50,955 nucleotides of DNA from Polyangiaceae bacterium (lineage in GTDB: Bacteria > Myxococcota_A > Polyangia > Polyangiales > Polyangiaceae), in assembly GCA_036560665.1 (NCBI GenBank), contig DATBQU010000343.1, forward strand, positions 1 to 50,955, written 5' to 3'. The notes under the pieces were generated by a model. That model worked only from the letters and a program-made list of their open reading frames with translations, made no database searches and was not told the DNA's origin. Below are positions 5,145-47,929 of this stretch, piece by piece. The stretch's first letter is position 1. Every line of letters starts with the position of its first letter. The position numbers and the translations under genes were made by a program.

Positions 5145-5828
5145 TCACGCGGCCGACAGCACCGCCTCGAACAGCTTCCTGCCGTCGGCGCCGCCGAGGA
5201 TGGCCTCGCTCATGCGCTCCGGATGCGGCATCAAGCCGAACACGTTCTTGCGCGCGTCCCCGTAGATCCCGGCGATGGCGTGCAGGCTGCCGTTGGGATT
5301 GGCGCGCTCGTCGAGGGCGCCCGCGCTCGTGCAGTAGCGCAGGGCGATGAGGCCGTCGTCCTCCAGGCGGCGCAGCGTGCGCTCGTCCGCCTGGTAGCGC
5401 CCCTCGCCGTGCGCGACGGGGAGCTTCCACACGTCGCCGAGCGCCCGCGTGAAGGGGCCCTCGGCCGTCACCTTCACGTGCCAGTCGCCGCACTCGAAGC
5501 GCAGCCCCGCGTTGCGCGTGAGAGCGCCGGGCAGCAGGCCCACCTCGGTGAGGATCTGGAAGCCGTTGCACACGCCGAGCACGTACCCGCCGCGCGCGGC
5601 GTGGGCGCGGATGGCCCCCACGATGGGGCTGACCTTGGCGATGGCGCCGCAGCGCAGGTAGTCGCCGTAGGCGAACCCGCCGGGGACGGCGACGAGGTCG
5701 GTCCCGGCCGGCAGGGCCGTGTCGGTGTGCCACGCCACCGTGGTCGGCGCGCCGCACACGTCGCGCAGGGTGTGGAGCATCTCGGCGTCCGCGTTCGAGC
5801 CCGGAAAGACGACGACGCAGGCGCGCAT
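5145..5828 (-). CDS. purQ: Phosphoribosylformylglycinamidine synthase I, glutamine amidotransferase subunit
   Basis: MRACVVVFPGSNADAE..., GVCNGFQIL (nucleophile Cys) and LMPHPER motifs. ATG at 5828. The longer ORF reaching 6194 only reads through the repeat array. Confidence 0.92.
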   Translation of the reverse strand: MRACVVVFPGSNADAEMLHTLRDVCGAPTTVAWHTDTALPAGTDLVAVPGGFAYGDYLRCGAIAKVSPIVGAIRAHAARGGYVLGVCNGFQILTEVGLLPGALTRNAGLRFECGDWHVKVTAEGPFTRALGDVWKLPVAHGEGRYQADERTLRRLEDDGLIALRYCTSAGALDERANPNGSLHAIAGIYGDARKNVFGLMPHPERMSEAILGGADGRKLFEAVLSAA

Positions 5829-5958: not shown

Positions 5959-6004
5959 GCCCTCTCCTCTTCCCGGCCTCGCAGGAGGCCCGGAGCCCTC
6001 CGCT

Positions 6005-6172
6005 GGAGGATCGCGTCCCTGCGACGGAGGATCGCGATCCTGCGACGGAGGATCGCGCCCCTGCGACGGAGGATCGCGTCCCTGCGCCGGAGGATCGCGA
6101 TCCTGCGACGGAGGATCGCGATCCCGGGCCCGAGGATCGCGATCCTCCAGCGGAGGGACGCGCCCCTGCCGT
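6005..6172. repeat. Tandem array of eight 21-bp units, each carrying a GGATCGCGATCC-type palindrome
   Basis: Units start at 6005, 6026, 6047, 6068, 6089, 6110, 6131 and 6152, with consensus GGAGGATCGCGATCCTGCGAC. Perfect 12-bp palindromes lie at 6029-6040, 6092-6103, 6113-6124 and 6134-6145. The last one extends to 16 bp at 6132-6147, and the final unit is degenerate. Confidence 0.9.
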
Positions 6173-6234: not shown

Positions 6235-8547
<2,313 letters not shown>

Positions 8548-9924: not shown

Positions 9925-11676
9925 CTATTCGGGACGGAAGAGCAGCTGCACGTCGGCCCATGCGTCGCCGGTGTCGACGCCGTCGATCTTCACGCGGGAG
10001 CCGGTCGCGATGCAGCTCTTGACCCCGGGCATCGCGTCGAACCCGCTGACCCGCGCGCCGACGACGTTCCCGCCCTCGTCGGTGGTGATGCGCAGCGTGC
10101 CCCTGCCCTCGATGCGCTCGGCACGGCGCTCGAGACCGGAGCGGTAGCACTGCGTCCACGAGCCGGCCCGGCGCGAGAGCGCGCGCTGCACGGCGCCGAC
10201 GGTGGCCCCGCCGCCGGCGCCGGTGACGCTCCAGTCGACGTGGGCGTGCGACGCGTCGAATCCTCCGCCGGACGCGGTCGCGGGCGCGGTCCCGGTCGCC
10301 GCCTCGGTCGCGGTCGCGCTCGCGGTCGCGGTCGCGGTACCCGTCGGCTTGCCGTGCGGGCTCGGCTCCAGAGGCGGCAGCTCGGCGGTGGGGTCGGTGA
10401 GCGGCTCGAGCGTGGTCGGCGCAGGAGGGACGACCAGCCCGGCGGCCTCGGGCGCGGGCGGCGGCGGGGGCGCGCCGGCGCGCATCGTCCACAGGACGAC
10501 CGCCCCGGCGCCGAGCGTCAGCGCCATGAGCGCCACCGCCAGCGTCCGGCTGCGCGACGGCTCGTCCGGCTCGGCGGCGGCGACCGTCCCGGCCGGCGTC
10601 AGCTTGCTGGAGGTCGCCTTCGACGCCGCGGCGGCGATCTGCGCCGAGTCGATGGCGAGCGCGGTCGGCGCGAGCGCCGCCGACGAGGGCGCGAGCTCGA
10701 CCGTCGCCGCCTGCGCGGGCAGCCCCCCCGTCCCGAGCACCGCGCGCAGCTCGGCGCGCATCTCGCGCGCGCTCTGGTAGCGCTCCTCGCGCTTCTTCTT
10801 CATCGCCTTCAGGCAGATGGCCTGCAGGCGCTCGTCGGCGAGGGGGTTCAGCGTCCGCGGCGGCGGCGGGTCCTCGGTCACGTGCTTGAGCACGATCCCC
10901 AGCGCCGTCTCCGCGTCGAAGGGCACGCGACCGGTCATCAGCTGGTAGAGGATGACGCCCATGGCGTAGAGATCGCTGCGCGCATCGAGCGACTCGCCCT
11001 TGCCCTGCTCGGGCGACATGTACTCGGGCGTCCCCACCACGATCCCCTGCGTCGTCAGCTTCCCGCCGCCGGTGGGGTGCGCGTCGCGCTGGTCGGTGAA
11101 CTTGGCGATCCCGAAGTCGCAGACCTTGACGATGTCGCGCGGGCGCCCCTCGTCGTCGGTGCCGCGCAGGATCATGATGTTCTCGGGCTTCAGATCGCGG
11201 TGCACGATCCCCGTGTCGTGGGCCACGGCGACGGCGGCCAGCGCCTGGGACACGATGTCGGCCACGCGCGCGCCGGAGAGCGGCCACTCCTTGCGGATGA
11301 GCGCGAAGAGGTCCCGCCCGTCGAGGTACTCCATGGCGATGTAGAGCAGCCCGTCGGGCTCGACGCCGAAGTCGATGACGCGCATCGAGTTCGGGTGGTC
11401 GAGCTTGCTGGCCGCCTTCGCCTCGCGCTGGAAGCGGGCCACGAAGGTCGCGTCCCCGGCGTGCTCCCCGTGCATGAGCTTGACGGCGACGTCCTTGTCG
11501 AGCGCGAGCTGGCGGGCCTTGTAGACGGCGCCCATCGCGCCGCCGCCGAGGTACGACTCGATGAGAAACTTGCCGGCGATGGTCCGTCCCAGGACCGCGT
11601 TTGCGCGGTCGGCGGACCTCGATGCCGGCTCGTCCATCGCCTCCCGAGTGTATGGCAGGGGGGCCGCCCGTGCCAT
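9925..11676 (-). CDS. Ser/Thr protein kinase with a TM segment and a two-Cys C-terminal domain (AgmX/PglI-tail-like)
   Basis: Hanks-type motifs are GGGAMGAVYKA, VAVK, HRDLKPEN, DFG and GTPEYMSPE. The C-terminal 100 aa contain two Cys (QCYRSG...KSCIATG). An alternative start is ATG 11637, preceded by GGGAGG. Confidence 0.9.
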   Translation of the reverse strand: MARAAPLPYTREAMDEPASRSADRANAVLGRTIAGKFLIESYLGGGAMGAVYKARQLALDKDVAVKLMHGEHAGDATFVARFQREAKAASKLDHPNSMRVIDFGVEPDGLLYIAMEYLDGRDLFALIRKEWPLSGARVADIVSQALAAVAVAHDTGIVHRDLKPENIMILRGTDDEGRPRDIVKVCDFGIAKFTDQRDAHPTGGGKLTTQGIVVGTPEYMSPEQGKGESLDARSDLYAMGVILYQLMTGRVPFDAETALGIVLKHVTEDPPPPRTLNPLADERLQAICLKAMKKKREERYQSAREMRAELRAVLGTGGLPAQAATVELAPSSAALAPTALAIDSAQIAAAASKATSSKLTPAGTVAAAEPDEPSRSRTLAVALMALTLGAGAVVLWTMRAGAPPPPPAPEAAGLVVPPAPTTLEPLTDPTAELPPLEPSPHGKPTGTATATASATATEAATGTAPATASGGGFDASHAHVDWSVTGAGGGATVGAVQRALSRRAGSWTQCYRSGLERRAERIEGRGTLRITTDEGGNVVGARVSGFDAMPGVKSCIATGSRVKIDGVDTGDAWADVQLLFRPE

Positions 11677-42370: not shown

Positions 42371-44065
42371 TCAAGGCGGCCTTGGAGCCGAGCACTCGCC
42401 GTCGAGGGTCCGGTTCGCGTCGGGCGAGACCGGCCCCATGGCATCCGAGTACGCGAGGTTGACCGCGCCCGGGTAGCTGCCGAGGGCGGCGGGCGAGAAG
42501 GTCACGGTCACGGCGCACTGCGCCCCCACGCCGAGCGTCCCCGTGGAGCAATAGGGGACGCTCGTCCCGGGCGCGATCACGCTCCCGACGCCCCCCGGGA
42601 AGGCTCCTCCGCCCCAGGCGAACGGAGTGCCGAGCGGCGTTCCTTCTCCCAGCGACGTCACCGGCACGGCGCCCCGGTTCATGACGAACAGGGTGAGAGG
42701 CGCGGTCCCACCGGGGAAGGTCGAGACACCGGATGGAGCGCAGACGCCGTCCATGCATCCGAAGAAACCCGGTTCATCGCTCACGGTCACGAAGGCGCGC
42801 GGGGTGGCCGTGCCGTGCAGCGCGCAGGTCGCGCTCGGGAGGTACGCGCCGGTGAAGTCCAGCGTGAGCTGGCCGCTGCCGGAGCTGGCGGCCGTGTAGG
42901 TGACCGAGACCGTGCAGGTGCTCCCGGGGGCCAGCGAGCTGGAGCAGAAGCCGGTCCCGGAGCCGCCCGGGTAGGCGCCGCCGGCGGTCCACACGAACGG
43001 CGGCGCCAGGGACATCCCGTCGGTGATGCCGACCACCGCGCCGCCCGTGTTCGTCAGCTGGAACTGCGTCGAGATGGGGATCCCCGCGGTGCCGAAGTCG
43101 AAGGGCAGTCCACCGTCCGCGCCGCCCGGGAAGCTCGTCGAAATGGCGCCCTGGAGCTTCACGCCGGCGCAGTCCGAGCCCACCCGCGCGACGTCGCGCA
43201 GGTTCGCCGCATCCTCGGTGCTCAGCCCCGCCGGCACCTCGCTCTGGGCCGGCACCGGCTTGCCGGTCAACGCGACGTAGAACGTGGACGCCGCGAGATA
43301 GGTGCCGGCCACCGTGGGGTGACTTAGGTCGCTCTGCTGCAAGTCGATTCCCGGGAACCGGGCGCGCGAGCGCTGAAAGGCCTCTCCTGCGCAAGCGAGG
43401 ATGCTCTGGGGCCAGAGCTGCGCCACCTGTTCGTAGGCGATGGTGAGCTCGTCTTGCATCTCGGCGGGGCAGGCGAAGTTGCCATACGGCAATGGCGAAT
43501 AGATCGGATCGCCCGCCGCCCGGGCCCAGGTCACGAAGAGAGTGGGCTGGGCTCCGGCGCCGACGATGAGGTCACTGAACTGCTGCGCGTAGCCGAGGAA
43601 CGTGGAGGGACCCAGGGCAGTGAGCGGCTCCAGGCTCTGACCCTGGAGCACGACGTGGGTCCACTGCCGCTCCAGGATCTTCGCCTGAGCCAGTCCGTTG
43701 CCCCAGTGGACCTCCAGAGACGCGCCGCCCTGCACGACTTCGTCCGTCGTGATGGTGGGCGGCACGCCGGCAGTGGCGGCGATCCTCGCGAGCATGCCGG
43801 GCAAGTCATTCACGTAGGTGTAGCTGTTGCCGATGAAGAGCACGTGGAGAGCGGCGGGGCCGGCGTCCGCGGTGAGCGTGTCCGGCGCGCCGACGTCCGC
43901 GGTCGCGGCGTCCGCCGTGGGGGCGTCCGCTGCGGGAGCGTCGGCGGTGCCCGCGTCCAGTGCTTCGGCGTCCGCCGCGATCACCGTCCCGTCCGAGTCG
44001 CAGCCAGCCAAGGGGGAGAACGCGGCGAATGCCACGGCGACAGCGATGACTGCGCGACGGTTCAT
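42371..44065 (-). CDS. Lipoprotein with an SGNH/GDSL-like hydrolase domain and C-terminal choice-of-anchor-D-like beta domains
   Basis: Lipobox FSPLAGC, an Ala/Asp repeat linker (ADAPTADAATAD), an SGNH-type block I (LFIGNSYTYVNDLP) and repeated TNTGG...C...C..V.Y modules. Confidence 0.75.
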   Translation of the reverse strand: MNRRAVIAVAVAFAAFSPLAGCDSDGTVIAADAEALDAGTADAPAADAPTADAATADVGAPDTLTADAGPAALHVLFIGNSYTYVNDLPGMLARIAATAGVPPTITTDEVVQGGASLEVHWGNGLAQAKILERQWTHVVLQGQSLEPLTALGPSTFLGYAQQFSDLIVGAGAQPTLFVTWARAAGDPIYSPLPYGNFACPAEMQDELTIAYEQVAQLWPQSILACAGEAFQRSRARFPGIDLQQSDLSHPTVAGTYLAASTFYVALTGKPVPAQSEVPAGLSTEDAANLRDVARVGSDCAGVKLQGAISTSFPGGADGGLPFDFGTAGIPISTQFQLTNTGGAVVGITDGMSLAPPFVWTAGGAYPGGSGTGFCSSSLAPGSTCTVSVTYTAASSGSGQLTLDFTGAYLPSATCALHGTATPRAFVTVSDEPGFFGCMDGVCAPSGVSTFPGGTAPLTLFVMNRGAVPVTSLGEGTPLGTPFAWGGGAFPGGVGSVIAPGTSVPYCSTGTLGVGAQCAVTVTFSPAALGSYPGAVNLAYSDAMGPVSPDANRTLDGECSAPRPP

Positions 44066-45907: not shown

Positions 45908-46555
45908 CTACTTGACGATGAGCGCGACCGGCTGGCTCCAGTCCGCCTCGCCGATCTTGGTCACCGGGCGGTACCGGAACATCACGCTCGCCCCCGGCAC
46001 CAGGCCGGAGACCGTCGTCTTGGCCTGCAGCGAGGCGGAAGCGAGCTGCCAGGTCTTGCCTCCGTCGATGCTCGTCTCCCATTCGTACGAGGCGCGCCGG
46101 GCGGCGGACTGCGCCACCAGCGTCACCTGTCCGGACACCGCGCCCGACTTCGCCGCGAACACACGCGGCGGGTGGGCGCCCGTCTTCTTCACGCTCAGCC
46201 CCGCGCTCTGGATGAGCGTGGACGCCTGATCAGGGCTGGCGTCGGCGGCCTGCTGCACGCCCGCCTTCAGCTGGTGAAGCAGCGTGACCAGCGCGGCGCG
46301 CTTCACGTTGCGCGTCGCCGCCGCCCCCCGCGTCTTGGACTGGGTCGCCGTCTCGGCGGCCTCGAGGTCGTCAATGGCCGCCGTCACGGTGGCGAGCGGC
46401 GGGTTCGTCGTGGGGAACGCGCTGTTGCCGGTCATCGACTGCACGATGGCCCGGGCGACGGTGATGAGGGCCGGGACCTTGGTCGGCAACTTCAGGGAGG
46501 CGATGGTGCGGCGCGGGAGGGGTGCGGTCTTGGTCTTGGCGATGGTGGTGGTCAT
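45908..46555 (-). CDS. Fibronectin type III domain-containing hypothetical protein
   Basis: 215 aa. Helical N-terminal half (LKLPTKVPALITVARAIVQSMTGNSAFP...). The C-terminal FN3 has ASYEWETSIDGGKTW...FRYRPVTKIGEADWSQPV. Native high GC3. Confidence 0.8.
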   Translation of the reverse strand: MTTTIAKTKTAPLPRRTIASLKLPTKVPALITVARAIVQSMTGNSAFPTTNPPLATVTAAIDDLEAAETATQSKTRGAAATRNVKRAALVTLLHQLKAGVQQAADASPDQASTLIQSAGLSVKKTGAHPPRVFAAKSGAVSGQVTLVAQSAARRASYEWETSIDGGKTWQLASASLQAKTTVSGLVPGASVMFRYRPVTKIGEADWSQPVALIVK

Positions 46556-46569
46556 GATGGGCTCCTTCG

Positions 46570-46884
46570 GCTTCGCGGGTCACTGAAAGCAGCTTCTTGG
46601 TTCGTTCGAGCGGCTGTGAGGTCCGTCACAGCGGGTTTGTGCTTCGTCATCGCTGCTCTTCGGAACGCGAAAGCAGCTTGCTGGTTGCAACGAGCGACTC
46701 CGGGGTTGCCGTGAGCGACTTTCTGGTCACTCACAGCGACTTCTTGGTTCGACAACGCAGCTCGTGGGTCACTCACAACCGCTCTCGCGTCATCGAGAGC
46801 AGCTCGCGGGTACCGAGAAGCTGCTTTGTTGTTCGTTCGAGCGGCTTCTTGGTTCCAAGATGCGGCTCTGGGGTCCTTGCGCGC
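46570..46884. repeat. Degenerate tandem array of about 15 units of 21 bp in a lower-GC patch
   Basis: Units are in exact 21-bp register from 46591 to 46884, plus one 22-bp unit before them. Consensus is nGCTnnnnGGTnnnnnnnAGC. Perfect 7-6-7 hairpin units lie at 46612-46632 (GCTGTGA/TCACAGC) and 46780-46800 (GCTCTCG/CGAGAGC). Hand-counted GC is about 55-62% per 60-nt line. Confidence 0.85.
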
Positions 46885-47139
46885 CGCCTCGCGGACCGCG
46901 CGACCGTCGTCGAGGGCTCCTACCCTTGGGGCGTTCGCGCCCGAGGCGCCCCACGCCGCGGCCGGGGTGTGCGCAACTACTCGGTATCGGTCGTGTTCCG
47001 GCGCGCGCGCTCCGCCCCACGGATGCTCTGCCAGAGCGGGGGGATCTTCGCCTCGTGGATTGGACCATGTTCGCTGCTCCTCTCTCATCCCCTCGTCCGG
47101 GAGCGGCGAATCTGGAAAGGGCCGATGCATTTTCTTTCG

Positions 47140-47151
47140 TCGACCGGTCGA
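47140..47151. promoter_or_regulatory. Perfect 12-bp palindrome upstream of msrA (possible operator)
   Basis: TCGACCGGTCGA, 60-85 bp upstream of the msrA start candidates, in AT-richer sequence. Confidence 0.3.
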
Positions 47152-47224
47152 TTTCATGAGCCGAGCTGGCGGAAACCGGCGAAACGCACGCCCCCCCTCG
47201 CGCGTACTCATGGACAACGCCGCC

Positions 47225-47929
47225 ATGAAGCTCTCCCTCGCTCCGCTCCTCGTCTGCGTCTGTGCGCTGGCCTCGCTCCCCGCGCTCGCCTTGCTCGCCG
47301 GCTGCCACGCCTCCCGCACCACGGCCGACGTCACCCCCGAGCCCTCCACCGCCAGCGCGGCCAGCGCAGCGGCCGCGCCGGCGCACCTGGGGACCGATCC
47401 CGGTCACGCCGGAAGAGGCACGCCGCTCACGCCGACGGGGCACGACAAGCTGGCCGCCTTCGCGGCGGGGTGCTTCTGGGGCGTGGAGGACGCGTACCGC
47501 CACGTGCCCGGCGTGGTCGCCACCGCCGTCGGCTACGCGGGCGGGCAGACGACCGATCCGGACTACGAGCAGGTGTGCACCCACCGGACCGGGCACGCCG
47601 AGACGGTTCTCGTCGAGTACGATCCGACCCGCATCCCGTACGAGCAGCTGCTGCGCGTGTTCTGGAAGATCCACGATCCCACGCAGGCCGACGGCCAGGG
47701 GCCGGACCTGGGGAGCAACTACCGCAGCGTGGTCTTCACCTTCGACGCGGAGGAGGCGGCGGCGGCGCGGGCGTCGATGCAGGCCGAGCAGAAGACGCTC
47801 GACCGGCCCATCACCACGTCGATCGTGCCCATGCCCGCCTTCTGGAAGGCCGAGGAGTACCACCAGCAGTACACGGAGCGGACGGGGCACCACGGCTGCC
47901 CCATCCGCGTGCCGGTGGACACGCTCTAG
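47225..47929 (+). CDS. msrA: Peptide methionine (S)-S-oxide reductase with a lipoprotein signal peptide
   Basis: Active site AAGCFWGVE and GYAGG...YEQVC...GHAE. The N-terminus MKLSLAPLLVCVCALASLPALALLAGC carries a lipobox. An alternative start is ATG 47210. Confidence 0.9.
   Translation: MKLSLAPLLVCVCALASLPALALLAGCHASRTTADVTPEPSTASAASAAAAPAHLGTDPGHAGRGTPLTPTGHDKLAAFAAGCFWGVEDAYRHVPGVVATAVGYAGGQTTDPDYEQVCTHRTGHAETVLVEYDPTRIPYEQLLRVFWKIHDPTQADGQGPDLGSNYRSVVFTFDAEEAAAARASMQAEQKTLDRPITTSIVPMPAFWKAEEYHQQYTERTGHHGCPIRVPVDTL

Follow-up and report, generated by a model that had tools for sequence, protein, structure and literature searches.

The FN3 gene locus and its upstream array

We analysed a 50,955-nucleotide stretch of a Polyangiaceae genome (contig DATBQU010000343.1, hereafter the window), in which a head-to-tail array of 21-bp units lies directly upstream of a minus-strand gene encoding a helical protein with an FN3 domain. 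The array at 46570-46884 comprises 15 clear units and is followed by a 16th, degenerate unit (46885-46900). It ends 3 nt before the ribosome-binding site of the gene, AAGGAG. A last, incomplete repeat-like unit contains this site in its variable part. On the other side, msrA (PMSR match, ATG at 47210) is encoded on the plus strand and is divergent from both the array and the FN3 gene. Apart from msrA, Pfam identified glyoxalase, beta-lactamase, TrkA channel and epimerase genes among the neighbours in the window.

A run of Tandem Repeats Finder (TRF), suggested as a check in an earlier sequence-only reading of this region, misses the array even at a score of 30, the lowest threshold, because the units are only about 50% alike. 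Lag statistics were used for array detection in its place. At lags of 21, 42 and 63 the array has a self-match of 0.507, 0.538 and 0.448, respectively, compared to approximately 0.25 at other lags. In 5000 shuffled controls the self-match at lag 21 had a mean of 0.264 (sd 0.025) and a maximum of 0.35, which places the array at a z-score of 9.7.

On the plus strand, the conserved columns of the unit are nGCT (columns 2-4), GGT (columns 9-11) and AGC (columns 19-21), and the T of column 4 and the C of column 21 are invariant across the units of the window. Together, nGCT and AGC form a dyad, AGCnGCT, across every unit boundary. Read in the orientation of the gene, the unit is GCT-N7-ACC-N4-AGC-n, in which the dyad recurs each 21 bp with an oriented ACC between the copies. 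The GC content of the array is 0.595-0.625 versus 0.70-0.78 in nearby sequence. The sequence-only reading had described an array in an exact 21-bp register with the boundary signature AGC/nGCT, a central GGT, a drop in GC content, a divergent msrA and a downstream FN3 gene, and all of these are borne out by the lag statistics, the column profile, the GC content and the gene calls.

The downstream gene has a host-like GC content at third codon positions (GC3) of 0.96, and Pfam gives no match of its own for the product. In the AlphaFold model, an N-terminal four-helix domain (pLDDT >90) is followed by a C-terminal beta sandwich, which matches only FN3 domains in Foldseek searches of the PDB and BFVD. 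Beyond this FN3 domain, searches with Pfam, PHROGs, PADLOC, NCBIfam and Foldseek returned nothing, and the N-terminal helical domain was without a match in the databases searched. The protein belongs to a very well conserved family of approximately 209 aa, with more than 800 relatives at E <1e-3, which are annotated only as 'hypothetical' or 'FN3 domain-containing'. Among species-representative genomes the family is found almost only in metagenome-assembled genomes (MAGs) of Polyangiaceae, with 9-12 dispersed copies per genome, and all array carriers found so far are uncultured MAGs. No match to the family was found in plasmid or phage collections, and on these grounds an origin from a mobile element was rejected.

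Arrays with a 21-bp period precede the gene throughout its family

Homologous loci, designated here by L numbers, were searched with a statistic for lags 21/42 in which codon periodicity is discounted. Within the 51 kb of the window it picks out only the FN3-upstream array and one other. Of the 55 Polyangiaceae homologous loci for which enough upstream DNA was available, about 45 have a 21- or 42-bp array directly upstream of the gene; in about 10 the upstream stretch is merely low in GC and shows no detectable period. The array is kept in approximately 80% of the paralogues, including the distant L061 and L062 (39-40% aa identity). The tie between array and FN3 gene that the sequence-only reading had proposed thus holds well beyond the window, and the outcome that would have refuted it, an array absent next to orthologous genes, clearly did not occur. 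Elsewhere, three arrays that do not lie upstream of an FN3 gene were found in 418 kb scanned, from which we estimate an approximately 160-fold enrichment at the FN3-upstream position.

In 49 homologous loci the array could be measured; it has a 21/42-bp period and ends at the gene. These arrays are 150-700 bp long and contain a median of 22 units (range 7-33). In 47 of them the best period is 21 exactly, and ten show a stronger 42-bp super-period. Their mean GC content is 0.60, compared to 0.68 for the gene.

The unit sequences differ strongly among paralogues, yet they have a loose consensus in common (..GCCAAC..AAAG-N-CGCTCT..), and for this reason the arrays look homologous but rapidly turning over. 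The number of units can change quickly as well. For instance, the close orthologues L019 (2472-2958) and L023 (131-314), with 88% aa identity and a near-identical upstream element, have 23 and about 9 units, respectively, a difference of approximately 285 nt, although the pair formed by the window and L081 (see below) is stable. In L003, 15 identical units appear freshly homogenised.

Motif and spacing are kept between the window and its closest homologue

The closest homologue of the window locus is L081/L082 (protein P0004, ~80% aa identity), which was seen in two independent samples. The arrays of the window and L081, with 16 units each, align unit by unit, and no indel was found over the array and leader (~370 nt), whereas the 336-nt array contains 105 substitutions. 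From the leader block to the ribosome-binding site the ungapped identity is 0.72, compared to 0.73 at the third codon positions of the gene, so that overall the divergence is close to neutral. The substitutions are unevenly distributed over the unit. In the AGCnGCT columns 15 of 96 sites have diverged (16%) and in the ACC columns 11 of 48, while the non-motif columns have diverged at 79 of 192 sites (41%; AGCnGCT versus non-motif, Fisher P = 9e-6). This comparison indicates that the AGCnGCT columns are under purifying selection. The 21-bp spacing itself appears to be constrained, because units that are only about 50% alike are too diverged for homogenisation to account for the complete lack of indels.

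Just upstream of the array, between it and the upstream element, a leader block is identical to L081 at 40 of 42 positions, which is far above the array (~70%), the third codon positions of the gene (73%) and the neutral level of about 72%. On the minus strand this block contains a GGGGCG...CGCCCC inverted repeat and AAGGGTAGGAG. A CGCGAAC...AAGGGTA motif like that of the leader block occurs in L054.

The symmetry of the unit gives no support to a series of RNA hairpins

The sequence-only reading described 7-6-7 hairpins with covarying arms in several units. Taken as a model, each 21-nt unit would be an RNA hairpin that is kept by compensatory changes in its arms and acts on the plus strand, antisense to the FN3 gene. 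Two units, at 46612 and 46780, do form perfect 7-6-7 hairpins as described. Among the near-hairpin units that it listed, the one at 46843 pairs at six of seven positions, but a total of three units with at least 6/7 pairs has a P of 0.063. When the 3' arms were permuted among the units, which keeps the make-up of each column, the 58 pairs observed in cis compared to 52.4 ± 4.1 in the controls (P = 0.11, or 0.22 when G-T pairs were allowed). In 50 related arrays, the per-unit complementarity had a mean z of -0.44 and exceeded 2 in only three; the dyad centre was chosen here by the consensus/trans score, which biases z slightly negative. The covariation of the arms claimed earlier therefore lies within the arm-permuted controls, both in the window (P 0.06-0.2) and in the 50 arrays.

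The mismatches do not point to RNA pairing either. Non-Watson-Crick cells in the paired columns are mostly transversions (563), and on the sense strand G:T (111) shows no enrichment relative to A:C (169), so the earlier claim of G-U pairs that work only on the plus-strand RNA finds no strand signal. The slight excess of A:C over G:T on the sense strand, which equals G-U on the plus strand, is explained by base composition. What does favour pairing is that many related arrays exceed column-permuted controls in local self-complementarity (mean z -1.4; 37% below -2). However, this signal is equal on both strands and the arm-permuted tests are null, and hence the symmetry belongs to the unit consensus and is not kept unit by unit. 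Moreover, the consensus dyads mostly have a centre of 0-1 nt, for instance GCCAAGG-T-CCTTGGC in L034, AACGG-T-CCGTT in L024, GAGC-A-GCTC in L081 and AGC-n-GCT in the window, with which an RNA hairpin cannot close. The conserved columns of the window thus make a boundary-spanning dyad and not a hairpin stem. The hairpin model is largely refuted for this window, and we consider it very improbable. The sequence-only reading had also suggested that selection acts on structure rather than on one protein-binding sequence. The orthologues instead keep a fixed short motif (AGCnGCT, ACC) at exact spacing, which is the signature of a recognition sequence and the opposite of that suggestion.

The window array is non-coding, in contrast to its probably translated Bacteroidota counterparts

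A minus-strand frame of 265 codons (46552-47349) remains open across the array, and its end overlaps the start of the FN3 gene in the sequence ATGA. This spurious open reading frame (ORF) could mislead gene callers, as it did in L081, whose called start (4001) precedes the likely ATG (4028) by 27 nt. Apart from the open frame itself, the properties of the array are not those of a coding sequence. The invariant column 4 is the third position of a codon with a varying amino acid. The GC content at all three codon phases is 0.57-0.69 versus 0.95 in host genes, and no frame comes near the host GC3. In L081, all sense frames have stops, two of them in the frame that is open in the window. The 105 differences between the two arrays fall on the three codon positions as 31/34/40. 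Non-synonymous changes outnumber synonymous ones by approximately 4:1 whichever of the six frames is read, and none of the frames is open in both arrays. Many paralogous arrays likewise have at least two stops in all three sense frames. A column-shuffle test of stop avoidance was uninformative, as its null keeps the column composition. On the basis of the six-frame stops, GC by codon phase, period-3 variability and substitution counts, coding was rejected for the window lineage, and the window array is non-coding.

The homologues of Bacteroidota form a subfamily of 63 clusters with 31-34% aa identity. They carry an N-terminal membrane helix and often lie inside polysaccharide-biosynthesis operons with glycosyltransferases, Wzy and Wzx. 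As in the window, a 21-nt array is found in sense orientation directly upstream of the gene. In contrast to the window array, it is the only open sense frame, in GC-poor DNA, and shows no dyad excess. It is in frame with the gene in nine loci from at least five lineages, and gene callers call the stretch as an ORF. The units encode a heptad with the consensus [GSD]xxxx[VI]T (SAKAPVT, GAKAPIT, GDVSTIT, GTTCKVT, DDMTCVT and GMTLPVT), and changes between loci are often synonymous or conservative, such as GTA (Val) versus ATC (Ile). We think that the Bacteroidota array is probably translated.

Elsewhere in the gene family, some arrays may be translated as well. L009 (170-490) is GC-rich, with 14-aa repeats PKIQQNHPHFEPSR in frame with the gene and a GC3 of 0.85. 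L022 (2260-2890), also GC-rich, has a consensus that reads QRPFANW with a GC3 of 1.0 in one open frame (from the unit sequence), and 0 stops versus 4.2 expected (P = 0.005). Together with the Bacteroidota loci and the frame ending in ATGA, these arrays are what speaks for a seven-residue-repeat peptide encoded by the window array. Given the stops in L081, the lack of a synonymous excess and the codon-phase GC, we regard such a peptide as extremely improbable.

Upstream surroundings and transcription

Many loci have in common an upstream element of approximately 60 nt, AAWTCGNC-N13-RAAATCG-N-CCCTTYCCGATTAAG-..GAGGGAGCGA. The copy in the window lies about 100 nt further from the array than that in L081. 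The element is a candidate promoter or a candidate 5' end of the leader. A promoter search found no sigma-70-like site in the element, inside the array or after it, and by eye neither an extracytoplasmic function (ECF) sigma nor a sigma-54 geometry fitted the element. A possible 5' stem-loop in the element (CCCTTCC...GGAAGGG) looked compensatory by eye only; RNAalifold on a MAFFT alignment gave no consensus structure and folding equalled that of shuffles (mean z -0.27), and the stem-loop was rejected.

Directly upstream of the array and on its strand, at least 15 loci encode a very divergent ECF-like sigma protein, which has a weak Sigma70_r4_2 match and carries a membrane helix at its C-terminus. 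Its gene is sometimes preceded by that of a small HEAT-repeat protein. In L081/L082 the upstream sigma gene is of the conventional ECF type (L081 2271-3215). In the window there is no upstream sigma gene, and msrA on the other strand is found instead. A search for an intrinsic terminator or attenuator, defined as a GC stem before a T run, gave one weak match on the plus strand, no more than in shuffled sequences. Compared with dinucleotide shuffles, the window array folds better on either strand (z -4.3 and -3.7).

Table 1. Features of the window locus and of homologous loci
Feature	Position	Strand	Basis or remark
Non-coding tandem array	46570-46900	minus	Periodicity, column profile, unit-by-unit orthology with L081, without a conserved ORF
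Ribosome-binding site AAGGAG	46562-46567	minus	Read from sequence; L081 arranged alike
Gene presumably served by the array	45908-46555	minus	215 aa; N-terminal four-helix domain and C-terminal FN3 domain
Leader block GGGGCGCCTCGGGCGCGAACGCCCCAAGGGTAGGAGCCCTCGACGACGGTCG	46901-46953	minus	40/42 identical to L081 (46901-46942, extending to 46953)
Degenerate copy of the family upstream element (AAWTCGNC-N13-RAAATCG-N-CCCTTYCCGATTAAG-..GAGRGGAGCGA)	47059-47155	minus	Candidate promoter or leader 5' end
ECF-like sigma genes	L007, L008, L011, L016, L018, L020, L022, L024, L031, L034, L036, L043, L048, L049, L060; ~600-1500 nt upstream of the gene	same strand as the gene	
Bacteroidota heptad arrays	L065, L067-L069, L084-L088; ~100-600 nt upstream of the gene	sense	Open frame, 1-3 stop codons before a gene for a transmembrane, helical and FN3 protein

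A phased cis-regulatory leader as the favoured interpretation

The comparisons between loci show an element that is non-coding, conserved family-wide and constrained in motif and spacing, and that tolerates changes in the number of whole units. Tentatively, and with somewhat less than even confidence, we interpret the array as a phased multi-site cis-regulatory leader that is probably read as DNA by a dimeric factor. The array would be the body of a conserved non-coding leader belonging to the helical and FN3 gene, a gene-linked minisatellite in which two features are kept: a dyad motif (AGCnGCT with the oriented ACC in the window, other dyads in paralogues) and the exact 21-bp spacing. As 21 bp corresponds to two turns of B-DNA, 15-30 in-register sites would lie on one face of the helix. 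A dimeric, sequence-specific factor would bind these sites cooperatively and so set the expression of the FN3 gene, and, bound between the promoter region and the ribosome-binding site, it would serve as a roadblock or silencer. Binding by a dimer to DNA is suggested by the dyad with its 1-nt centre, the equal signal on both strands, the lack of a wobble signature and the two-turn period. We infer from the same features that the reader is a protein and that it would recognise double-stranded DNA rather than the transcript; the direction of regulation given here is likewise inferred.

Several observations weigh against this interpretation. In a test for DNA bending, the A/T content of the array showed no 10.5-, 7- or 3-bp harmonic. 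The motif differs between paralogues, so that several specificities or a structure-reading factor would be needed, and the cognate binding factor is putative. The FN3 protein is unlikely to bind its own leader because it is probably extracytoplasmic, as judged from the N-terminal membrane helix of its Bacteroidota homologues. Arrays such as those of L003, L014 and L019 have no dyad excess. Very probably, the array is transcribed together with the FN3 gene and lies inside the transcript, because it borders on the ribosome-binding site and the genes upstream of it often share its direction. On the sense strand A outnumbers T in 39 of the 49 arrays (nominal P = 4e-5) and C outnumbers G in 33 of the 49, where the arrays are not independent and the bias may come from a common ancestral unit. 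Finally, the common period of 21 may descend from a heptad-coding repeat.

Some of these observations would fit an action at the RNA level, the main rival interpretation, which we consider possible but rather unlikely. The array would then be transcribed as a 5' untranslated region of 300-600 nt, with modules of a short GC-rich core plus an A/C-rich linker (e.g. ..ACCAAGAAGC..) that act on the mRNA as multivalent sites for an RNA-binding protein or nuclease (stability or translation), or as a sponge-like or processed RNA. Consistent with this, the array reaches the ribosome-binding site with no sigma-70-like promoter inside or after it, the family-conserved element lies upstream of the arrays, and a co-directional ECF-like sigma gene is found directly upstream in at least 15 loci. 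The strand bias, linkers that are often (AAN)n-like (e.g. AACAAGAAAAG in L003) and the better than shuffled folding of the window array point the same way. However, independent RNA sites need no exact spacing, yet the 336 nt of the array have acquired no indel and the period is 21 in nearly all arrays. The core dyad cannot form a hairpin, neither G-U enrichment on the sense strand nor per-unit compensatory change was seen, the strand bias may be inherited from the ancestral unit, and Rfam had no match. A functionless minisatellite, either a relic of a heptad ORF or a slippage-prone repeat that is periodic through unequal crossing-over only, and would be carried along with the gene, would account for the divergence of most columns at or above the neutral rate (~41% versus 27% at third positions of the gene), for the wide differences between paralogue units and for the roughly ten homologous loci that have lost detectable periodicity. 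The change in unit number between L019 and L023 and the homogenised L003 are also as expected for such a repeat. We nevertheless regard it as improbable, since it leaves unexplained the purifying selection on the motif columns and the lack of indels over 105 substitutions in units too diverged for homogenisation. Moreover, the array is kept even in distant paralogues, with a consistently lower GC content and a constant orientation. CsrA GGA sites, T-loop mimicry on the plus strand, AT-hook (CarD) sites and tandem ECF promoters were considered as further candidates, and none fits the conserved columns.

Comparison with known repeat systems

Clustered regularly interspaced short palindromic repeats (CRISPR) were rejected, since the units lie head to tail with a period of 21 and no spacers, the neighbours include no cas genes and PADLOC had no match for the adjacent protein. 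In Rfam, the window region gave only sub-threshold chance matches and nine related loci gave none. The sequence-only reading was thus right that the array is neither a CRISPR array nor a known repeat class.

Iteron and centromere-like arrays are bound cooperatively and double as operators. The favoured phased leader resembles those of plasmid R1 parC/ParR, TubR/tubC and Rep iterons in that helically phased tandem direct repeats lie directly upstream of a gene, a short motif and its spacing are conserved, and the repeat sequence differs between paralogous systems. In contrast to these, Pfam found no Rep, ParA, ParM or ParR-type gene among the neighbours, nor one for ParG, TubR or a partner NTPase. 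The family is chromosomal with 9-12 loci per genome, the 21-bp unit is repeated 15-30 times, and the adjacent FN3 protein is probably extracytoplasmic. The 21-bp repeats of the simian virus 40 (SV40) early promoter contain the GC boxes for Sp1, in-phase transcription-factor sites close to the promoter. They are alike in being tandem 21-bp units near a promoter with multiple in-phase sites. They differ in belonging to a eukaryotic virus and in having three copies, whereas the bacterial array has 15-30 copies between the presumed promoter and the start codon. The array would thus work most like one of these two systems, yet it belongs to neither, because there is no Rep or Par gene and no plasmid or phage, and both the scale and the client gene are different.

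CsrB/RsmZ, with GGA motifs, and CrcZ, with A-rich motifs, are stand-alone small RNAs in which the motifs are irregularly spaced and lie in hairpin loops. Many copies of a short motif about 20 nt apart, and A-rich linkers in several arrays, are reminiscent of these RNAs, but the array differs from them in its exact spacing, dyad core, leader position, lack of a periodic GGA and lack of an Rfam match. A sponge RNA of the Csr/Rsm or Crc type was rejected, as the column profile has no periodic GGA and A-rich linkers are found only in some paralogues. Mycobacterial interspersed repetitive units (MIRUs) are 46-101 bp long, dispersed and not tied to one gene family. With these variable-number tandem repeats and other intergenic minisatellites or contingency repeats of bacteria the array has in common its intergenic position, the change in copy number by whole units and a spurious small ORF that overlaps the start of the next gene. 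It differs in its 21-bp unit, in one period over approximately 50 paralogues, in its tie to one gene family and in a motif under purifying selection. Copy variation of the MIRU type was seen at L019/L023, whereas the window and L081 are stable at 16 units. Full-text searches of the literature found no description of such arrays. Given its recurrence upstream of about 45 related small FN3-domain genes, the array looks like an undescribed element of gene control, with a function that we propose from sequence.

Other 21-bp arrays

The second array picked out in the window (5997-6169) is non-coding and has 8 units of CTGCGACGGAGGATCGCGATC with 42- and 63-bp super-periods and the palindrome GGATCGCGATCC. 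It is located in the intergenic region between the divergent purQ (5145-5828, minus strand) and purL (ATG at 6236, plus strand), ends approximately 65 nt before purL, and is crossed by the stop-to-stop frame of purQ. In L081 (257-836), a 21/42/63-bp array with the unit ..GGAGCGCGTCC.., like the core of the purQ/purL array, does not lie upstream of an FN3-family gene but precedes a gene for a DAO-family oxidoreductase, which itself lies before the ECF sigma gene. In L013 (3612-4065), alternating inverted 21-mers, ACGACCGCGGATC and GATCCGCGGTCGT, form a 21/42/63-bp array between the FN3 gene and an unrelated gene. In addition, TRF reports a CGGTCG hexamer run (11.7 copies) and a 45-bp repeat (2.4 copies) in the window, at 10269-10338 and 43852-43958, respectively.

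Arrays with this period thus seem to be a more general trait of these genomes. A more far-reaching conjecture, which we hold to be unlikely, is that phased 21-bp minisatellites, with short dyad motifs in their units, are an undescribed class of cis-elements: nucleation tracks for a cooperative nucleoprotein filament that would act as a chromatin-like local switch on the gene behind them or, alternatively, be processed to phased RNAs of approximately 21 nt. Such elements would occur genome-wide, on the order of 100 arrays per genome by extrapolation from the three non-FN3 arrays in 418 kb, with different motif families at different genes; the FN3 genes would be their main client, and the heptad ORF of Bacteroidota would be their source or sibling.

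Implications

Bacteria rarely have conserved non-coding repeat arrays of a defined architecture, and it was in this way that CRISPR arrays first came to notice. The array described here is tied to a large uncharacterised gene family, with more than 800 clustered members and 9-12 copies per genome in the abundant soil Polyangiaceae. Its exact two-helical-turn period is kept over approximately 50 diverged loci, and a 6-nt dyad is selected while the rest of the unit drifts. The translated heptad that appears to occupy the homologous position in Bacteroidota raises the question whether a coding repeat became a non-coding regulatory repeat or the reverse. If the array is indeed a phased binding track, it would represent a new wiring of bacterial gene control and provide a system in which cooperative, spacing-dependent recognition can be studied.

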